This document shows positions 18,600-38,842 of a stretch of DNA of 64,000 bases, piece by piece. A program made the translations under genes and the position numbers. The stretch's first letter is position 1. Each line of letters starts with the position of its first letter. A model generated the notes under the pieces. That model was not told where the DNA came from. It worked only from the letters and a program-made list of their open reading frames with translations, and searched no databases. The stretch is from Scyliorhinus canicula. Taxonomy: Eukaryota. The DNA is taken from contig NC_052149.1 in the NCBI RefSeq assembly GCF_902713615.1, positions 152,745,383 to 152,809,382 of the forward strand. The letters run 5' to 3'.

Positions 18600-20270
18600 G
18601 TGACAATCTCTTTATTTCAAATTGTTTGTCCTCAATGCACCTCCCACATGGGCGCTGATGGGGGCGTTGACACTGCTTGAACACTCCAGGAGGCAGCATC
18701 AGAGATGCAGCGGCCAACATTCAATCACCCAGGGGATGGGCCCCAGCCCCGGGCACATGTCCATGGCCAGGGCATGTTGGGTGGGGGCTTGGGAGGGGGG
18801 GGGGGGGGGGGGGGGGGGTATTTTAATGTTCCTTGAGCAAGTGTACACCACTGCCCTACTCTCCCAATATTGCAGCCCCACTATCTCTACCTTCCCCCCA
18901 AATGCCCCCAACCCCTCCCACTCCACTCCCGCCCTCCATGCATACTCTACTCCCTAACCCCCACCTACCCCAGCACCCCCTCTCCCAGTACCCTGTCAGT
19001 GATCCTCGATGTGCTTGGCCTTTCTTGCTCTGCCGCTATGTCTAGGTGTACCCCCAGGATATACATCAGAAGCTGAGCCAGCTGCTTAGCTCGACCCTTG
19101 GCCTTCGATGTACCTGGCAGGTGTCCTCTGGAGGCTCTGGGTGCACTTGACGGAGACACATGCACAGGCGTGCCACCTTGTTCCGGGTGCTGACTGCGAG
19201 ATGCGACCTCAGTAGAGGGGTGGATCTCGGGGGAGCTGGTGCCCACTGTTGCCAGTCCATAGACTTGTTCCTATATGCCACCCTGTGCCCACTCCTTCGC
19301 TCAATGCCCATAGGGCCCTGGGGTTTGCCTCGGGACGAAGGGACGGATGGATTGAGCCCGGCTGCCCCTGCGGCATCAGGCTCTGCCAGCCCTGAAGGCT
19401 CCTCAATGTCTGCACCCTCGGTGATGCTCCTCAGTGATTGGGCCATGTTCTGCAGCGCCTCGGAAATGCCCACCTGTGATGGGCAAGCTCCGCAGAGCCT
19501 CAGCTATTCCCTCAGCGCTTTGTCAATGTTAGACTAGTACCGGGTCACATCTCCAGTGAGTCGGACAGTCTACCGAGACCCTCAACCATGGCCATCATCG
19601 ACAGCACATGCCTTGGACTCCCTTACTCATGCTGCTGTCATCGTGCACCAGACTCTCTACTGTGTTCGCCACCCTAGCAGTGTTGGCCTCAGTGCCACAG
19701 ATTACCGGCGCCATCTCCTGCGCCTGTAGCCTCTGGGACTCCACCAATCGGCTGGAGTGTCACTGGCATCTCCCTGTGAATGTCCCAAACAGTGACATTC
19801 CCTGTGAGTGTCACTCCCTAACATTCCATTATCTCCGGGATAGCATGTTCCATCGGCTCAGCATCTGGCTGGAACACAGCTGGGACCTGGGATCCAGCAA
19901 CTTTCTAACTGCTGTCTCGATTGGGGGTTCCTGCCTCCACCCACAATGCATCAGCGGCTGTGTAGTGCTCACCAGATTGCGCCCCAGAATCATATCCACT
20001 AATGTTGCCCACCAAGGTGCGTGTCTCTGCGCTGGTGGAGATAGGGATGACAGCTGTGCCACATCGATTGTGGCATCCTCGGAGGTCTCCTCCAAGGTGG
20101 TCTCATGGGAGGCAGGGAGCCGCCATCGGCTAGAGGGCCTGCGGGAGAATGAACACGTGGTAAATCGGGGAGGGGGGGGACACGTGGTAAATAGGGGGGG
20201 TGGAATAAGTTAATCTGTATGGCATTAACTTCTCACGTTTGACAGGTCCTTTGGGTGGGGCCCGGTGGAT
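18600..20270 (-). mobile_element. Second decayed Harbinger accessory (Myb-like) gene segment
   Basis: AQSLRSITEG resembles ASLQSVAQSQRAMAEG of the 56400-58800 copy. The AC/GTGAGA donor at about 20235 matches the exon ends in the other copies. Confidence 0.55.
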
Positions 20271-20549
20271 CCTATCCTATGCAACACAATTTTACCTGAA
20301 ATCATTTTAAATACATGTATTATTATAAAACTCTACGGGGCGCTATGACATTCAGGCATGCATTACAAAATTGAAAACTGGAACCTCTATCTATCCTCAA
20401 TAGACTATCCTCACTCAAACAATCCAAAAATAATCTATAACATCTTAAACTGTACAAATAGCAGCACACAAATTTCTCTGGCTTGGCAGTCAACCACAGA
20501 GTTTACATTTCTTTATTGAACGAAACACACAGAAAAAAACGGATGCACT

Positions 20550-20902
20550 TTAATTCATGTCAAGGGGTTCGGGGGTTTGGTGAAGTCCGAAAATAGGGGA
20601 CTTAAACGTGTATAAAGGGGTGCGAGAGCAGTGGGCTCTCAGTCGCCATTTCCTGATTCTAAGTGTCTGCACGACACTGCAAAGTATCGCCAGTACTAAG
20701 AGGGCTTCTACTACGTATGACAGTGAATACCAGGTGATAAACTTATCACACCAGGTCGGGGTATTGTTAACTTCGGGGTTCTGTGTATTGCAGGGGTGGG
20801 AATCATTGACGGCTTGTGTGGTAGGGGTCAGGGGGTAGCGTCCGCGTGCAATTGAAGGGATCCCGCTAAGATCCAGGTGAAGAAGATGGAGGTCGCCTTC
20901 AT
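20550..20902 (-). pseudogene. Putative small type-I membrane glycoprotein at the env position (117 aa after repairing one homopolymer frameshift)
   Basis: MKATSIFFTWILAGSLQLHA looks like a signal peptide. One extra C in the run at 20831-20835 joins it to a region with NDS and NNT sequons, a TM segment (YVVEALLVLAILCSVV) and a basic RIRKWRLR stretch. Confidence 0.6.
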
Positions 20903-21416
20903 CTTTCCTGTTGTCGGTCTTCTTCTTTCTCTTCCTCTGGGTTCCTGAGTTTCCGGAGTTCTGTGAACACAAGCATAATATCTGTTATTATCTTGCTTAA
21001 GATCTCATATGTCTGTCTGTCTGTTCTTTATTGCCAATTACCCTTTATAATTGGTCACCATCTGTGACTCCATCTTTTTTTTTTAAAGCCGAATATCTGG
21101 ACAAGACATCCTAGAAAAATACTGACACAGTGCGAGCTGTCTCGCAGCCTGTGCGATTTACCATCCCAGTGTTTGAGGATGTAAATAGCATATGGAGAGC
21201 AACGTAAGGGTCGCCATAAACAAACAAAAGAGTTTTGAACCAGAAGTTCCGAATGGGGTGCGTATGGGGTGCGGGTAAGAAATGGATGGAATCTCCGGGT
21301 AGGACGGTGATCAGTGCCGTTTGTTCTCTACCCGAGCATAGCTGACCAGGGGGCAGGTCCTCAGGCAGGACGGAGACCAGTGCCATTTCTCCACTGCCTG
21401 AGCAACCGGCAAACCA

Positions 21417-21624
21417 GGGGCTGGTTTAGCACACAGGGGCTGGTTTGGCACACTGGGCTAAATAGCTGGCTTTTAAAGCAGACCAAGGCAGGCCAGCAGC
21501 ACGGCATAATTACCGTACCAGCCTCCCAAACAGGCGCCGGAATGTGGCGACTAGGGGCTTTTCACAGTAACTTCATTGAAGCCTACTCGTGACAATAAGC
21601 GATTTTAATTTTCATTTCATTTTC
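21417..21624 (+). mobile_element. Short tRNA-SINE with a duplicated head, inserted in the retrovirus-like element
   Basis: Same family as 6511-6690; GGGGCTGGTTT occurs twice at the start. Confidence 0.85.
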
Positions 21625-21965
21625 AAGAACGGGTAAGAATGTGGTCGTCGTGGGGGTTGTCGTTATGCATCGCCTGCCTCGAAGCAGAAGAGCAGTTATG
21701 AGCTGTTGTCTGTGGGCAAAAGTTTACCTCTAAATGGGTTTCTGTTGACAAACTAGTCCTAATGGTTGTCTGTGGACAAACTTGTTCCATTAACTGCCGG
21801 GGGCATTAAAGGAGTGGTGGCGTGGGGCCGTGAAAAACGTGCAAAATCACAATCAACACTTAACATTAACACTAACGAACAAACATACAACAAACATGGT
21901 GCAGGTTCCATCACAAAGGACACCGTATCTCTCCATCGGTTCCTTTTTACCATCGTCTGGACACC

Positions 21966-24900
21966 TCATTGCTCAATAGCGAACAGAGTCGCAAAGGGAT
22001 TCGTTTGGTGGGAGTCAGACTCTGTCATCATCTTCTCTCGGCTGCCATACTCTTGACTGGAGTAACTTTGATAAAGCTGCTTGGGGCGAATTGGGTCCAT
22101 CTCATCATTCCGGATGAGCCTGAACGAATTGTCTCGGTGCCAGAATTGTGTGTCGAGGTTGGAGCTACTAAGGTTTAATCCTTAATCTTCGGGCGGTGGG
22201 TCTGGGTCAGGGGCATAAATGTATGTAATCTCGAACGGGTCACTGGAATCATGCTCGGAATCGCTGGGAGTGGGGCCTGGTACAGGGGATAATCATAACG
22301 TGGTGTGCTGTGGCTGTCGTCATCGCTATCACTGTCGCTGTCGCTGCTGGTTGAAGGGAGAGGCGGGGTCATGCCTCTGGGGGTGGAGTTGAAGTCGTGT
22401 CTGAGGACAGGCTGGACTGGCTGGGGGAGGGTAGGAATGCATCATATGTGGGAGGGGGTGATTGGCTGCTGCTGCGAGCAGGATGTGGTGTGTATGGTTA
22501 TTCTGCGAGCCATAAGCCTTGAGCTGGTTTATGTGAAATCACGCAGACTTGCCATTGGGATATGTAATCTTGTATACCGGGGCTGACTTTGTCCAAAATG
22601 GAGTACGGTCTGGAAAATTTAGGGGAAAGGAATGAACTGGGGTTATCTTGGGAAAGCATCACTTGCTGCCCTACTGCAAACTCAGTGGCGTGTACTGTCT
22701 TGTCGAAACAAGCCTTGCTCTGTTTCCTCCGTGTCCCAAGTCTCACAGCTGCTGCGAGTTGGGCTGCCTTAATGTTCTCCATTAGCTGCTGTACAGTGTT
22801 TTCATGTGTGAGGACTGTGACTGTGGGGCTGGCCAAATCTAGTCCTAATAAATACTCTGTCCCTTTCATGGGGCGTCCGGTCATGAGAGTGTGGGGAGTG
22901 TATCCTGTGGACGTGGATACCGTGTTCCGTAAAAACATTAAAGCAAATGGGAGAACTGAATCCCAGGTGCTGTTATTCTGCTGCCCCATTTACCTGAGGG
23001 TAGCTTTTAATGTCCTGTTCATCCTCTCTACAATACCACTTGACTGGGGGTGATATGCTATGTGAAACTTTTGTCTGATGCCGAAAATTGTGAGGACGTT
23101 TTTCATTACACATCCTGTAAAATGGGAGCCTTGATCGGACTCTATACTGTGGGGGAGGCCCCATTTTGTGAAGATGTGCTCTGTTAGGATTTTAGCTGTT
23201 GTTTTCGCCGTATTCGTTCTTGATGGAAAAGCTTCCACCCATTTTGTGAAGGTGTCGATGATCACCAACACATACTTATAACCATTTCTGCAAAGGGATA
23301 GGGGTCCTATGTAATCTATCTGCAGATTCGTCCAGGGGCCATTAACAGGGCGGGTATGACTAAGTTGAAACTTTTTTGCATATCTGTCCGGATTGTTCTG
23401 GGCACAGATCAAGCAATTCTCAATGTAGTGGGTTACATGGGCGTTTAAATCAGGCCACCAGCAGAGCGGTCTGAGGTGGGCTAAGGTGGGTTCAATGCCT
23501 TGGTGTCCATGATTGTCATGGAACTGACAAATGATCTGGTTCCTGTCCTGGCTGGGAACTACATAAATGCCTTCTTTCAGAATCACACCATCATGTGTGA
23601 TTATTGCATTTTTAAACTTATCATCCGGGGCTGGGAAGGTTCCCTTTAAAACTTCCCTGAGTTTCTCATCTTCCTTTTGAGCCTTCGCTAAATCCTGTAT
23701 GTTGGTCTGTGAGACCTGAACTGCGTGTACTGGGGTGCTTTCGGGGGGTTCCAAAAATAACCATGCCTGGAACCTGCCTTCGCTAGGGCGTCTGCTTTAA
23801 CATTACCGGGGAGGAAGAATAGTGATGACTGTGAACCTTAATGATACCATATTTCCTATCCCTCGCTGTCTCTAAGATATGTCGGAGTAATGGGGCTGAG
23901 GGAAGGGGTTTTCCGTCAGCGGAAACGAATCCTCCCATTTTCCACAGGGGTAGGAATTCTGTTAAACTATTACAGACGTACAAGCTGTCCGAATAGATGT
24001 CTGCTGGGGTCGGGAACGAGTCGGGGTGTTCTACAATATAAGCGATTGCAGCCAGTTCTGCTGCCTGCAAGCCTAAGTGTCCTGGCAACTTTAGTGAAAT
24101 CTCATCTAGGGTGCGTCCCTGTGCGTCCTCTACATAAATGCCGCAACCGGTGATTCTCTTTCCATTTAAAACTGTGGAGGAGCCATCCACATAAATTTTC
24201 AGGGGTGCACACGTGTCTGTGGGCTGGGGTCTCTGGGGTGTACTGCCTGCTTTCCTGGGAGGTGTCTTAGGTATAAATGGGCCTGTGTTGTGTTTTGTGG
24301 TGATGATATCACACTCATGAGTGGGTGCCTGCATACTGCAAATTATCGGAAAGGAAGGTGTGGGTCTTGGTTCTTTTCACTGTAATGTCCCGTCCTTGTA
24401 AAAGAAGGGTCCAACAGGCTGCGCGGATTTGGCTGACTGTGCCATCTTTAAGGCAGCCGCCTAACAATAGCTGTGTTGGGGTGTGTTCAGTGAGAATGGT
24501 GATGGGGTTGAGTCCTGTAATGTAGGCGAAGTACTGTACTGCCCAAAAAACTGCGAGCAGGTGCCTTTCACAGGCAGAAAATCCTTGCTCGACAGGATCG
24601 AAAATGCGTGAGGTGTATGCGAATTGGTCATGGCGTTCCTGGAGGAGCACGGCCAAAAGGATTCGGTCGGTGCTAGCTACTTCGATAGCGAACGGGGAAA
24701 GTGGATCTGGGACCTGTAGTGCGGGGGCTGTGCTGAGTGCTCTTTTTAAAGCATCCATGGCATCCGTGTGCTGTGGAAGCCATTCCCAAGGTGCTGCTTC
24801 TTGAGAAGTTCAGATATGGGCGCTGCTTTAGTGGCGAAACCATCAATATGGTTTCGGCAGTAGCCAACCAGTCCCAGAAATGACCGGAGGGCTGAGACAT

Positions 24901-26166
24901 TGTGGGGAAGGGGCAATTTGATGATTGAGTCAATTCTCTTTTGCTCGATCTCGCGTTTACCGTGAGTGATTACTGTACCCAAGTAAATCACTTTTTCTTC
25001 CAAAATCTGGGCCCTCTTGGGGTTGACTTTACATCCAATTTCTTTAGGAGACCTAGGAGTTCGGCGGGAAGTGAAATGTGCTCTCCCTTTGTGTCTGTCT
25101 GTAGTAGCAAGTCGTCTACATACTGGACCAGACAATCGGGGCGGGAAAATTTTGCTAATCCATTTGCCAGCTGTCGGTGCAAAATGGAGGGGGAGTTTTG
25201 GAAGCCCTGTGAAAGGCACGTCCATGTATATTGCTGTCCCTTGAATGTGAAGGCGAATTTGTACTGGCACGCTTTATCCAATGGAATGGACCAAAAGCCG
25301 TTGCTAATGTCCAAAACCGAAAAACATTTTGACTGGAGTCCCTGTTTGAGCATGGTCTCGGGACTCGTCGCTATGGTGGGGGCTGCTGCTGGGGTTACTT
25401 TGTTCAGTTCCCGGTAATCAATGGTCAGTCGCCATGATCCATCCGGTTTCCTGACGGGTGCAAATGGGTGCATTGTTTGTGGAGGCTACTGATCTGAATA
25501 CACCTTGGCCAAGTAAACTCTCTATTACCTTTGAGATTTCTCCCTCTGCTTCCTGGGGAAATTTGTGTTGCTTCTGGGGTCTGGGGTCGGGACCTGTAAT
25601 ATGCACAGAGCCAGCCAATTTGCCACAGTCGTGCTTGTGCTGTGCAAATGCTGCTTTGTGTTCCTGCGGGACTGCCCTAACCTGTTTGTCTAGACTAATG
25701 GCTCGAGGGTCGAACCAGAAGTCTCCAACTGAGCTAATCCTGTTCTCATACTCTCCTACTGTGAGCGTGGCGAGGCTCATGCTGCCTTTGCCATTTTCCA
25801 AACACACTTGTTTACCGGATCCGAAGAAAGGTTGTGGGAGCTCATAAAATCGATCCCTAGGATTTGTTCAGCTGTCTGGGGCAGATCAACCAATATTACG
25901 GGGTGCTTAGTTGTAATGTTACCTATTTGTATCACTGCAGGGGCTGTAATGTGTCCCTGTTGTAAATGACCTGTAAAGCCGCTGAGTGTGTTGGTGTCTG
26001 TTGTGGACCACGTGTCCCTCTGGAACATCGTGGAGGAATTGAGTGTGGACCCTCCTGTGTCCCAAAGAAATTCTACGGGTTGTACCCGGACTTTGCCGGC
26101 TACTACCGGTCTACCGGACGTGTCCCAAAGGGTGTCGCAGACCCAAGTTGGAGAGCCCAAACACCG
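21966..26166 (-). pseudogene. pol: pol: protease, RT, tether, RNase H, integrase and long C-terminal tail, with several frameshifts
   Basis: Protease FLWDTGG. RT LDISNGFWSIPL, QGFQNSP and YVDD. Degenerate RH (IEVAS in place of TDAS). RH YVDGSS...AAELAA...YSDS. IN HDNHGH..CLIC, QIDYIG, ESDQG and IVERMN. Confidence 0.92.
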
Positions 26167-27896
26167 TCAGTCTGTGCGGTTCATGTCTGCATTCTTTGAA
26201 CGGGCGCTAACGCTATGGATCGGCTTTGCCCTATTCCTATTTAGGGTGCCTGTCTGCTGGTTTCTCTGATGCTTTTGGGGCGCGTTGCACTCTTGTGCAA
26301 AGTGTCCTAACTGTCCACAATTGTAGCATTCTTGTGATTTAGGCTGGAGTGGGCTGTTCCTGCCCTCATTTACCCATGTGGGGTTCTGGTGCGCTTTAAC
26401 TGGATTCATGTCTGCCTGTTCTTCCTCAGGTTTTATAAATGCGGCTTTGCCTTGGACTGATTGCTCCCAAGCGGGGGACAACCTTTTCAAAACCCATTTT
26501 TCATTGTGGGCCTCCTCTGAGGGGTCGTAATTCGCGCAAGCTCTCTGTCCTGCATCTGTCGCGTGAGAGACCAAGATTCGAGTCCATTTGGCCATATTAT
26601 CTGCGAACAAATGGGCGCGGGCTAACTCTCCGAAAACTACTGTGAAGTGTATCCACAAGCGTCCAGCAAATGCTGTGGGGTGCTCTGTTTTCTTTTGCCT
26701 ATACTTGTTTAGGCCTTCTACCGGGTCTCCTCTGTTATAGCCGATCGCGTCCAGGATCGCTGTGTGCATTTCTTGGAGTGTGCCTCCTCCTACATTCTGT
26801 GGGTCGGGAAGGGCTGCCATGACTGAAGGGTCGAGGCTTAAAACTGTGAGCTTCACTTGCTCCTTCTCGTCCAGGCCGTACATGGTGGCCTGCTGTTTAA
26901 CTTTAGCGAAAAACTGGTGGGGGTCCGATGTGGGAAGAAACGGTGTAATTTTTCCACACTCGTCCCTTAATTGGGTTACGGTTAACGGGGTTGTATAAAG
27001 GAAATCTGCGTCTCCTTCTGCTGCGGCCCTGCGGTGTGTGGTTACAGGGTTCACGGGGTATGTTCTGCCTGTTCAGTCGGGGTTGGGGTGCTCTCCTTTT
27101 CTGGGGTTTTTCCTGCATACATGCTCCATGTACGTATCTATGGGCAGTCTCATTTAATTCCTGCCAATCGGGGCTGTTTTCCTGATTTAACTGGGGTCCA
27201 AATGTACTTTAAAACCCATTTTGAACGGAAAGCAAAGATTGCAATTCTGCAATTTGCTTCTGGCACTTTGCATGGTCTACGGAGCTCTGCCTTTCCTCGT
27301 CGTGGAAGTGTGGAGTGCTCGTAGGGCTGCTTTTAAATCATTACACTGTTTCTGCAATTTCTCTACCTGTTGCTCGGTTTCTTGTCTAACCAAGACCGCA
27401 CGTTGTGTGTCCTGATAGGCCTTATCGTATTGGGTTTGGAAACTATTCAAATGCGCGAGACAAGACTGGTGTGCCTTCTTGGCATCATACACCTCTCTGT
27501 CCCTCACTGCTAACTGCTCTCTTAACTCCTTATTCTCCTCAACTTCACTCACATCTACCTCACTATTTCTGTCTCTCTCCTCAATCTCTCTACGGAGCAT
27601 CTTAACGACCTCCTCTGTGCCTCGCAATTGTGCCAGACAGGACACGATAGCCATCAGCTTGCGAGCTTTCCCTAAGCTCTTCTTGCGAATCTCTGACAGG
27701 TTCTCCCACCAAGTATGCCCTATACTTCCGGGACCTGTTTCGTTATTGGCGCAGAATTCGCTCCAAAGGGGCCATCCTTTCCCTTTGAGATATTTTCTGA
27801 TCTCATCTTCCCATACGGGACACTGTCCTACTCTACTGGTCGCTGCGACCTCAAATTCCTGGGGGTTCATAAGCATTCCATTGCCTTCATTGCCAT
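26167..27896 (-). pseudogene. gag: gag (N-terminal coiled coil, capsid-like region, one CCHC knuckle), frameshifted
   Basis: ORFs 27277-27876 (heptad-rich ELREQL...VEKLQKQCNDLKAAL) and 26167-27054 (RQKKTEHPTAFAGRL; CYNCGQLGHFAQEC). ATG in MAMKAM at 27896. Confidence 0.85.
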
Positions 27897-28181
27897 CTTC
27901 TCTATCTAGGTTCCCTACTGAATTTGGAACAGGGGGTGATAAAGTGGTGATGTAAACACGGGTATGGCTTACGCCAATTTCCAGCCTACAAAACTCCCGA
28001 CAGTTTTACGCAACAAAATCTCTCAGGTTTAGCTTATATCCCTGTTAGTACGCATGCATTAACACACTTCCGAATTCTGGAGGCTTGATCAGTATTGTTC
28101 TTACGCTTGTGGTTTTTCTGTTTCTAATTGGATTCTCAATTCAAATTTGGGTTCTCTCGGAGCGGTTAGGCCACTTCTAAA

Positions 28182-28203
28182 TCGAGTCCCGGCGGAGTCG
28201 CCA
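28182..28203 (-). promoter_or_regulatory. Primer-binding site complementary to the tRNA-Arg(UCU) 3' end
   Basis: The + strand reads TCGAGTCCCGGCGGAGTCGCCA, which matches my recollection of the vertebrate tRNA-Arg-TCT 3' end plus CCA. Confidence 0.8.
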
Positions 28204-28208
28204 GTAAA

Positions 28209-29084
28209 TGTTGCTCGTTGTGTTCTCTCTTTAATTGGCTCTGTTTATGGTGGTTAATATGGTCGCCTTCCTTAATTCTAATTACGTTTGTTCAAGAGTC
28301 GGCAGGTATCTTTCGGTACCGCCACAAGGTTCAAAACCGAATACTGATCAAAGACTCGATACACCAGTTAGGAAGTTCGAAATCAATGCTCATTTATTTA
28401 CACACACAGTCAAATATACTCATGCGCAAAACTCTACCAACTAAACTATCACTACTACTAAAGCCTATACTTAGCTTCGGGCGCACACTCAGTCAGAGGA
28501 ACAATGGCCGTTGTCCGGTTCTGAGGCTTCTGGGATTGAGCTGGTACAGAATAGTAGATAAGAGCATCTGTCTCGTAGCGTGCATTGACTTTGGACTTAC
28601 TTGTTCTGGTGCAGCTGCTAGGCAGGTCTCTCCTCGCTGAGAGCCAAGGCCAAGAGAGCAATTCTTTCTCAGGGGCTCCTTCTTATACCCAAAGGAGGCT
28701 TTGCGCGCTTTTGGGTGGGCCTTGAACTTGGCCCCAATTAATTGGACCGCATCTTTATCATTCTTATCGATTTCCTCCAATAAAGGGGTGGGTGCCCTGA
28801 TTGCTGGGCGGGCCCCACGTGGCCGTTGGCCTGCTTTGTTCTCCTCTGGCGCCGGGGTGTCTGCCTTAGTATCGTTTACCTAAATGTTACTCTTTTGTCC
28901 CCGGAGATGGCTCATCAGTATGGTAATGGCTTTGCAGTATCGGTCTTGTCTGGGAGCTATAACTCCAATCAACAGACAAACCTTGCACCTGCTTGCTTTC
29001 TCAGTACAGTATTGTCAATTTTCCCTGCATTCTTTGCAAAGTGTCCATTTTGTAATCGGGACGTGGCCATCCCAGATGGCTACA
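28209..29084 (-). repeat. 5' LTR (876 bp) of the retrovirus-like element
   Basis: The minus strand begins TGTAGCC and ends GCAACA. It has TATAA at 28687-28683, CCAAT motifs at about 28735, and AATAAA at 28398-28393, and lies next to the PBS. The second LTR is not present to confirm the boundaries. Confidence 0.75.
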
Positions 29085-30479
29085 ACGCTCGCTACCACAC
29101 TGAGACATCTTTCCAGAGTATCACACCCATTATTAACAAAGACATTACAAATCTCTATTAGAAATTGAAGCATGGCCTATGAAACATGTCCGGCTTCTTT
29201 TGAGATTAATAAAATACAGCAAAAACAAGTAATTGAAACAGGGCAGAATATAATGCCCTCCCTTGAGGAATGTTTCGTGAAGGATTAAGTCAAGTGGATA
29301 GCCTTCTCACCAATTGAGACCCACAAGTGGGCAATTAATGTATAATTATGGCCTTGATCTCACTGCTGCTGATATTCACTCGGTGGGGAGACTCAGCATG
29401 CAGTAAGCTCTGTTTTCGGGAAGGTGTGGGGGTGACCCCCGTCAAAGACAGTCAGTACCACCTCCCTGCCCTTGCTGTTGACCAACCTCCGGTGACCCCC
29501 ACCTCACAACCCTCCTACCGCAGCACACACCTGTGACCTGGATCCCTCAGCGATCCTGTGCCTTGGCTGGGCGCATTTCTGGTAGTAGCCCCACCAGCCC
29601 TGCCAAGCAATGCACAACGGTCGGCTTCTGATTCGGCGGCAGCCCTCAGGAGGCAGGACCTCCGCCCATGGGATCCTTGAACCCTGGGAAAGCCTACTGC
29701 TCCCCAGTTAAGTGACCGATTAACATTTAATTTAGCACTTTCTCCTGAAAGTAGGGGATTTGAAGGCTCTTTCCGGCTTTCCAGTCACCGACATTAAACT
29801 ATGCCCACAGAGCCAAAAACAAGTGTAAACCATGAGGGTGGAGGTACAGAGGAAACGTGGACCAGGGGCACACTTGGTCTCTTTGAAAGCAAAGTTTCTC
29901 ATATCAATTGTACATAATAAGTGGATTTTAATTACTTTTAATTAGTTTATTGAAAGATCAATTGTGGGATGTAAAATTGGTCCGAAGTATATTTGCGCAA
30001 TGGATGACATCCTGTTGGGAGCTGAGATAATACAGTTCCTAATCATATGAGGTACAGGCCTAATTTGTTCTATTCTTGGATTTCCTGTCAGTAATTAAAG
30101 GAGAAGCTAGTGACAAGTTTAGGACGCATAAAAATAGATTACATTGCAGAAGTAAAGAGCCTGTGCAAAAGATAATGAAATGAACTCCAACATCAATATA
30201 GCAAAAGGCATTAAGAACAGGAACAAACACATTGTGGCTTTCATTTTGATGGGCAAGATAAATTTAAACTTACAGGACAATTGTTAAGAGGAAGCTCATC
30301 TGTTTAGATCTGTGGGAAACATTTGTGCAGCTTCATTACTTTCAAAGGAATTGTGGGAAGAGAGCCGTTTTTAGCAATGCTGTTGCTCCTTTCATAAATC
30401 CTCAACAAAAATGGCACTGGGTTGCCCAGAGAAACAAAGTGCCATTTATCCGTTTATTTCTGAGGAGGCGCAAAAGAAA

Positions 30480-38042: not shown

Positions 38043-38633
38043 GCAGGGAGAACTGCCAAACAGACAGTGACTCAGCCGGAAATCAAACCTGAGACCCTGA
38101 AGCTGTCAAACAACAGTGCTACCCACTGTGCTACTGTGCTGCCCAATTTGTATTGGTAAACATTAGAAATAAGGCATAGTTTTAAGAACATCGCATAAGA
38201 ACTAGGAGCGGGAATCGGCAATTCAGCCCCTCAAGCCCACGCCATCATTCAATACGATCATGATTGATTCCCTCTCGACCTTACCTCCACTGTCCATAAA
38301 ATAAACCCCTCTCTCTGGAATCAATCAAATGAACCTCCTCTGAATTGCCTCTAATGCAACTACATCTCTCCTCAAATAAGGGGATGAAAACTGTACACAG
38401 TACTCCAGGTGCAGTCTCACCAATGCCTTGTACAGTTGCAGCAACACTTCCCTACCTTCATACTCTATTCCTTTATCCATGAATGTCAACATTCCATCTG
38501 CCTTTCTTATTGCCTGTTGCACCTGCATGCAAGTTTTCTGCAATTCATGCACGAGAACACCCAAATCCCTCTGCAGCGTAGCACTCTAAAGTTTCTCCTC
38601 ATTTAGATAATAACTTACCTTTTCATTTTTCTG

Positions 38634-38842
38634 TAAGAAGTCTTACAACACCAGGTTAAAGTCCAACAGGTTTGTTTCAAACACGAGCTTTCGGAGCACG
38701 GCTCCTTCTTCAGGTCCACCTGAAGAAGGAGCCGTGCTCCGAAAGCTCGTGTTTGAAACAAACCTGTTGGACTTTAACCTGGTGTTGTAAGACTTCTTAC
38801 TGTGCTCACCCCAGTCCAACGCCGGCATCTCCACATCATGGC
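38634..38842. mobile_element. Penelope-like element terminal (pLTR) insert forming a perfect 168-bp palindrome (83-bp arms, 2-nt loop)
   Basis: Arms 38633-38715 and 38718-38800 are exact reverse complements. 13-bp TSD TTTCATTTTTCTG at 38621-38633 and 38843-38855. Confidence 0.8.
38717..38751 (+). ncRNA. Minimal type-I hammerhead ribozyme motif
   Basis: CAC-CUGAAGA-A-GGAGC(CGU)GCUCC-GAA-AGCU-C-GUG. This gives stem I, the core, an extra A, stem II, a palindromic AGCU in place of stem III, and a UC cleavage site after 38748. Confidence 0.7.

Follow-up and report, generated by a model that had tools for sequence, protein, structure and literature searches.

A short membrane protein gene under purifying selection at the env locus of a catshark retrovirus-like element, probably derived from env by internal deletion

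What does a retrovirus-like element encode at the place where Env should be, if the frame found there is only about a hundred codons long? The window, a stretch of 64,000 nucleotides from the catshark Scyliorhinus canicula (contig NC_052149.1, positions 152,745,383 to 152,809,382), carries such an element on its minus strand. The initial annotation read its last frame, here called mini-env, as a spliced gene for a small non-Env membrane protein. The layout of the window copy is as follows, from the 5' end of the element.

28209..29084, minus strand: 5' LTR, about 875 nt; matches both ends of other copies
28687 and 28398, minus strand: TATA and AATAAA, respectively, within the 5' LTR (motif scan)
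28595..28600, minus strand: candidate major splice donor CAA/GTAAGT, within the LTR and 87 nt downstream of the TATA; GT[AG]AG in 41/52 aligned LTRs
28186..28203, minus strand: primer binding site, taken to be of the tRNA-Arg type, which starts with TGG 5 nt past the end of the LTR
28099..28104, minus strand: leader donor of the initial annotation, GTAAGA; GT[AG]AG in 7/23 aligned copies
27967..27972, minus strand: second leader donor candidate; GT[AG]AG in 16/24 aligned copies
26167..27896, minus strand: gag, broken in the window copy (PF00098, E 9.8e-07)
22498..26166, minus strand: pro-pol, broken in the window copy, with protease, RT, tether, RNase H and integrase (Pfam)
21412..21624, no strand assigned: short inserted repeat, in the window copy only, absent in other copies and dispersed elsewhere in the window
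20961..20992, minus strand: splice-acceptor cassette ahead of the env locus; AG in 39/39 aligned copies
20550..20902, minus strand: mini-env, frameshifted near 20830 in the window copy
20271..20549, minus strand: 3' untranslated stretch; the window copy stops here

The window copy shows its age: both gag and pol are broken, it has taken up a repeat, and it lacks the 3' LTR. Other copies carry a 3' LTR about 100 nt further on, and in these mini-env lies between pol and the 3' LTR, which is the retroviral env locus. Full copies found among 20 ten-kb stretches have two LTRs and carry no long gene after pol; where long LTR pairs were seen in these stretches, the two members are 88-96% alike. Gag comprises an N-terminal coiled-coil-like part, a capsid-like part and one CCHC knuckle, and it terminates at a TGA in frame with pro in 26/26 aligned copies, from which we infer that Gag and Pol would be joined by stop read-through. 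The pro-pol region matches PF00077, PF00078, PF17919/PF17917, PF00075, PF17921 and PF00665 and includes a dual RNase H, a trait common to all retroviruses. About 1.5 kb separates the integrase from the acceptor-like AG at 20961, and Rfam gave no match within window positions 20200-29200.

Several other features were seen in passing. The nine-letter start of the primer site is duplicated inside the LTR in most copies, 70-100 nt upstream of the site (window about 28305, minus strand), and the integrase apparently extends into a long Pro-, Ser- and Asp-rich stretch that is broken here (22000-22500, minus strand). In 19/26 copies the gag stop TGA is followed by CGG (26164-26169, minus strand); TGACGG is a read-through context. 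Elsewhere, the window contains a tandem array in which a 15-nt unit occurs in about 76 registered copies and which has long open frames (794-1900), as well as a perfect 83-nt inverted repeat (38633-38800).

The element likely belongs to the snakehead-retrovirus-like lineage (clade Huo). Its RT motifs KPDGSWRLTIDYR and LDISNGFWSI are shared, by eye, with the SnRV row in the accessible part of the supplement to PMC7947760. Clade Huo spans vertebrates according to the available portion of PMC6001957, and SnRV-like ERVs occur in a chimaera, as stated in that of PMC4422223. The best RT match in the PDB is to a foamy virus (93 bits, with MLV at 61), and among named proteins those called "NYNRIN-like" in frogs and coelacanth come nearest. 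A Lokiretrovirus placement was dropped after comparing core RT motifs by eye: CPFG.NSP and IYVDDIL in the Lokiretrovirus rows available versus LSQGFQNSP and QYVDDLLL here.

Much of the anatomy first proposed for the gene can be traced in the window. The acceptor-like stretch indeed ends in AG at 20961; the first ATG behind it, at 20902 with A at -3, opens a signal-peptide-like segment, and no other ATG lies between them. The two sequons, the Cys residues, the hydrophobic segment, the RIRKWRLR stretch and the short tail are present as described, in another frame that runs from stop to stop between 20984 and 20550. The window copy had been called frameshifted, and it is: the break lies just behind the signal peptide, near 20830, and the ATG frame closes after 24 codons. 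In uninterrupted natural copies the signal-peptide frame and the TM frame are joined, and this is the norm of the family.

We found mini-env uninterrupted in 6/30 copies of the window's subfamily, chosen for DNA likeness (in one of these the frame overruns the usual stop), and in 9/30 copies of a second subfamily about 80% alike to it, selected through upstream DNA alone (of these nine, two are longer and one is the query copy); it is broken in the other 24/30 and 21/30. In both subfamilies the uninterrupted proteins are mostly 113-118 aa long. They are predicted to begin with a signal peptide and a Thr/Pro-rich stalk that carries sequons, to continue with a Trp-rich membrane-proximal segment and the TM, and to end in a basic stop-transfer stretch and tail; small size, a single TM and a basic stretch behind it are all present, as judged by hydropathy. 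The Cys and sequon pattern is specific to the family and showed no conservation across related families in protein alignments. Genome searches returned 1995 first-look candidates for the element DNA and 5617 for the mini-env protein, figures that are not copy numbers.

A comparison of dN/dS across copies, which the initial annotation had proposed as a check, revealed purifying selection. With within-group divergence subtracted from the between-subfamily value, net dN/dS between the subfamilies is 0.20 (0.10-0.32) for 12 + 12 copies. Because these copies had been picked by protein, we repeated the estimate with copies picked by upstream DNA (14/29 + 14/29) and obtained 0.22 (0.14-0.36). The two other frames, in contrast, yield 0.98-1.31. 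Within mini-env, dN/dS is 0.23 in the signal peptide, 0.33 in the stalk, 0.04 in the membrane-proximal segment plus TM, and 0.36 (0.16-0.97) in the tail. Elsewhere in the element it is 0.10 for RT and 0.03 for integrase, while the non-coding controls give 2.76 (3' UTR) and 0.65 (0.39-1.22; spacer). Mini-env is therefore under purifying selection, strongest on its membrane-proximal and TM part, and we are highly confident that it has a protein-level function in the lineage. These results support the reading of mini-env as a real, selected gene at the env position of a retrovirus-like element, for what is predicted to be a small type I membrane protein.

Database searches found few homologs. The short protein has no homolog in a protein set clustered at 90% and nothing significant in Pfam; a search of 1.8 billion representatives returned four real matches, all catshark gene models, plus one chance match. 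A profile search with a related 218-aa form (see below) gave two matches. All named proteins recognized as homologous to the small one are gene models of the catshark. One catshark gene model, protein P0036 ("HEPACAM family member 2-like isoform X2"), has the stalk, TM and basic stretch of mini-Env at its end, which may reflect capture of the anchor by a host Ig gene or else a prediction artefact.

Farther families in the genome, reached via a chance second match in one stretch, carry 115-aa, 218-aa and ~650-aa versions at the same place behind pol, so the series of intermediates is read in one genome. RT in the 115-aa and 218-aa families is 63-77% identical to the window's RT in most copies. 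The ~115-aa form has the same plan as the window's form, and the 218-aa form has, in addition, a Cys-rich domain of ~105 aa between the signal peptide and the stalk. An alignment of 20 proteins shows five invariant residues, namely two Trp, two Leu and a Glu, all in the membrane-proximal and TM part. Searching the genome with the Cys domain of the 218-aa form led to older families in which this domain continues into a long gene. The order there is signal peptide, Cys domain, an RVKR or RRKR site, a GL(I/V)N fusion-peptide-like stretch, a heptad-like stretch, a Cys-rich middle, TTWW..FW.W, TM and a basic stretch, with 609-654 codons from the Cys domain to the TM in the seven copies measured; all long-gene copies are decayed.

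The 218-aa form matches both ends of this long gene without its middle. Its N-terminal Cys domain aligns to the long gene at 159 and 173 bits (shuffles reach at most 15), and its C terminus does so with an hhalign E of 3.5e-12, 6/9 rows lying above the shuffle maximum of 13.2 bits. The 118-aa form in turn matches the 218-aa form (profile E 9.2e-16; 12/12 rows at 43-58 bits, shuffles at most 25.7). The direct match of the 118-aa form to the long C terminus is weak (hhalign probability 77%, E 1.9e-05), its 2.2-7.5 bits lying below the maximum of 10 in window-shuffled controls, and the link between these two therefore rests on the 218-aa intermediate. An acceptor cassette ending in YAG/G is also common to the 115-aa, the 218-aa and most of the long-Env copies shown, and the frame, start and stop of the env gene are retained despite what appear to be two in-frame deletions and an RT divergence of 23-37%. 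The cleavage site, fusion peptide and heptad repeats, present as motifs in the long form, are absent from the 118-, 115- and 218-aa forms. The lost parts are thus those predicted to serve cleavage, fusion and, in the window's family, a putative receptor-binding domain; the kept parts are those predicted to place a protein in the membrane with its tail inside.

A quick integrase tree of 44 rows, from which six loci were dropped for short matches, nests the outgroup, long, 218, 115 and 118 forms in that order (SH-aLRT 97, 86, 92, 95 and 96) and places one long copy (L190) among the 218-aa copies. The RT tree, likewise a quick one and built from 36 rows, is poorly resolved; it groups the 218-aa with the long forms (89) and does not recover the nested order. 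Given this conflict, stepwise loss from long through 218 to 115/118 aa is the likely reading, its order unproven. The "Env" label of the long gene rests on its place and its predicted anatomy. Pfam and PDB sequence searches with natural pieces of it found no match, and neither eight natural long-Env pieces, which are short and decayed, nor one profile matched PF00523. An Atlas search with a long-Env piece gave leads that are mostly viral glycoproteins, all under 0.9, and the same search with the 218-aa form gave no match; two structure predictions have pLDDT 41 and 33. Through the 218-aa form, the protein that had been described as non-Env is linked to a ~650-aa Env-like gene at the same locus, and we consider it very probable that mini-env originates from env by internal deletion. 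Other internal env deletions, joining the N-terminal domain to later parts and some of them within one open frame, were seen in several old copies (L196, L197, L198, L199, L200 and L193); the middle of env thus seems to have been deleted more than once.

How the gene would be expressed is less clear-cut than its selection. The leader donor first proposed does read GTAAGA at 28104-28099, but its description as strong does not stand: the exon side is AGC, and GT[AG]AG is kept in 7/23 copies (GT alone in 21/23). An exon ending at 28104 would contain four upstream ATGs, and the first exon defined by the LTR donor contains none. GTAAG is found at a similar LTR position in four copies of far families. 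The leader donor is thus probably the wrong one, and the LTR donor at 28600 is better kept. The proposed spliced mRNA itself did not appear: among the matches listed in two RNA read mappings, which sampled about 1 in 100 of the deepest RNA run, there was neither a donor-acceptor joint nor a loose end at the acceptor. With the window copy as target, where the inserted repeat swamped depth, no donor-to-acceptor joint was present among the 15 of 42 joints listed; with a repeat-free natural copy, none of the 24 of 208 loose ends listed lay at the acceptor, and depth was higher on its intron (upstream) side. One oligo-dT run has a sense bias over mini-env, about 3 versus 0.3 if the library is an ordinary stranded one. 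This bias is what sense transcription would give, at a low depth that equals that of pol.

Upstream of the acceptor, a double hairpin followed by a T run is predicted (window 21110-21200, minus strand; L073:2083-2144) at -24.4 kcal/mol, a value obtained without a shuffle control. Hundreds of RNA reads share ~60 nt of this double hairpin with other flanks, and in far families only its first 20 nt match.

What, then, does the protein do? To our reading there is an even chance that mini-env is an internally deleted env, selected and tethering the element's own particles to membranes as a fusion-dead anchor, and our confidence in the anchor and assembly mechanism specifically falls a little short of even. 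Because selection acted between multiplying subfamilies, the protein worked for the element itself. Gag probably starts with MAMK (the start is itself deduced), without a Gly2 for myristoylation, and we therefore propose that a membrane anchor brings the capsids to the membrane. In this mechanism the donor at 28600 in the LTR would be spliced to the acceptor at 20961 and the resulting RNA translated; the protein would enter the ER, be glycosylated and adopt type I topology; its tail or TM would contact Gag; and capsids would reach the membrane to assemble or bud, the element spreading without infecting new cells. The tail is the least constrained part of mini-env (dN/dS interval up to 0.97), which counts against this explanation.

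Other explanations account for parts of the same evidence. That mini-env is a functionless remnant of env, or is conserved solely as an RNA signal, would agree with the absence of a junction among the RNA rows listed and with the broken state of 24/30 and 21/30 sampled copies, and env decay is common in multiplying ERV families. Single-copy breaks are, however, expected after insertion, dN/dS is near 0.2 in the coding frame only, and frame, start and stop were kept through the deletions; the codon-phase signal largely refutes this explanation, which we regard as extremely improbable. A product that does act on something other than Gag could resemble Vpu, which acts on host factors through TM or tail contacts. 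Counteraction of a host membrane restriction or immune factor in this manner would suit the selection peak in the membrane part, the invariant Glu within the hydrophobic segment with two invariant Trp before it, and an ectodomain that is dispensable. The invariant residues are largely inherited from the long Env, though, where their role is entry or assembly, and such antagonism appears unlikely.

The initial annotation had named a mini-fusogen among the candidate functions. In that case mini-Env would be a cell-cell fusogen or channel former of the FAST/sORF2 kind, passing capsids from soma to germ line. The resemblance lies in a length of 113-123 aa, one TM, a basic stretch and a membrane-proximal segment that is rich in Trp and most strongly selected, and the short-form families yield 5617 and 5011 search candidates versus 693 for long Env (again not copy numbers). 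Yet the N terminus is signal-peptide-like, Gly2 occurs in 0/16 natural short proteins, the ectodomain consists of a stalk that varies, is rich in Thr and Pro and carries sequons, and homolog searches gave no sequence link to any known family. With the fusion-peptide-like and heptad-like parts deleted as well, the idea finds little support, and we hold it to be quite unlikely. Receptor interference, also raised at the outset, would block reinfection by enveloped relatives in the manner of truncated Envs such as Refrex-1. Enveloped relatives were once in the same genome, and the 218-aa form, which this idea fits better, retains the N-terminal Cys domain at the position of the receptor-binding domain in other Envs. 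That domain is lost in the window's family and in the 115-aa family, leaving the window's form without a folded N-terminal domain, and Refrex-type proteins show the opposite anatomy in the available text of PMC9245640; interference is very unlikely as the function here. The selected membrane anchor remains our preferred reading. A more far-reaching but unlikely reading is that the fusion machinery was shed stepwise (about 650, 218, then 115-123 aa) and that the anchor became a small transfer protein, carrying capsids directly from cell to cell and into the germ line. If this were true, the protein would be a vertebrate counterpart of fly sORF2 that arose by env pruning, and the cause of the families' large expansion.

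In the usual picture, ERVs that multiply within a genome simply lose env. Here both ends of env were kept in frame and selected while the middle was dropped, and the intermediates are preserved in the same genome. The lineage would thereby isolate the non-fusion job of an Env membrane anchor and tail on a 118-aa protein, and it offers a natural series for the origin of small viral membrane proteins from large glycoproteins. We found no description of such a selected mini-Env form in the literature outside subscription papers, as far as the text of those sources was accessible, and a selected mini-Env with its intermediates is, within that scope, an env truncation of a kind not found described. 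A catshark ERV-Spuma consensus has been published (PMC10699275, accessible in part), and that element may bear on the novelty of mini-env.

Among known systems, SnRV and the clade Huo ERVs, including elephant-shark CmiERV lineage I, come close to the element; the RT motifs in common are those of the SnRV row. SnRV has an Arg primer site and a coiled-coil Gag. Its in-frame gag stop is read through according to the accessible part of PMC13517186, as we infer here, with UAG as the stop in SnRV and UGA in the element. SnRV differs in its full Env with a 136-residue tail and in its accessory ORFs (PMC12193657, available portion), whereas here the tail is ~35 residues and env is truncated. Foamy viruses and fish foamy-like ERVs supply the best PDB match to the element's RT. 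An LTR donor and Env-dependent budding of a non-myristoylated Gag are foamy traits; a CCHC knuckle, a gag in frame with pro across a stop, a non-Lys primer site and a short signal peptide are not. The element departs from the foamy viruses in all four of the latter, which are its own features. Lokiretroviruses also have a dual RNase H, and their Env comprises a signal peptide, RXKR, fusion peptide, coiled coil and TM (accessible part of PMC7947760). Their RT core motifs are unlike those of the element, and the sole Chondrichthyes row seen in the survey gives none found.

The closest functional parallels are small proteins. Like the mini-env product, MDG1 sORF2 and the reovirus FAST proteins are small, cross the membrane once and have a basic juxtamembrane stretch, and the elements concerned have no fusogenic Env (available text of bioRxiv 2025.03.14.642691). 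The sORF2/FAST-like proteins described there are 63-114 aa long, most have an N-myristoylation motif, their transcripts are unspliced, and "signal peptide" is not a term used in the text available. Mini-env is unlike them in having no Gly2, a signal-peptide-like start, sequons, an acceptor ahead and a probable env ancestry, and there is no sequence similarity. Refrex-1 and its primate counterparts resemble mini-env as short env-derived proteins with a signal peptide and a retained function, but their anatomy is the reverse: the N-terminal domain is kept, the TM is absent and the protein is secreted (PMC9245640, in the part accessible). Refrex-type proteins serve the host, whereas selection on mini-env acted between multiplying subfamilies of the element.
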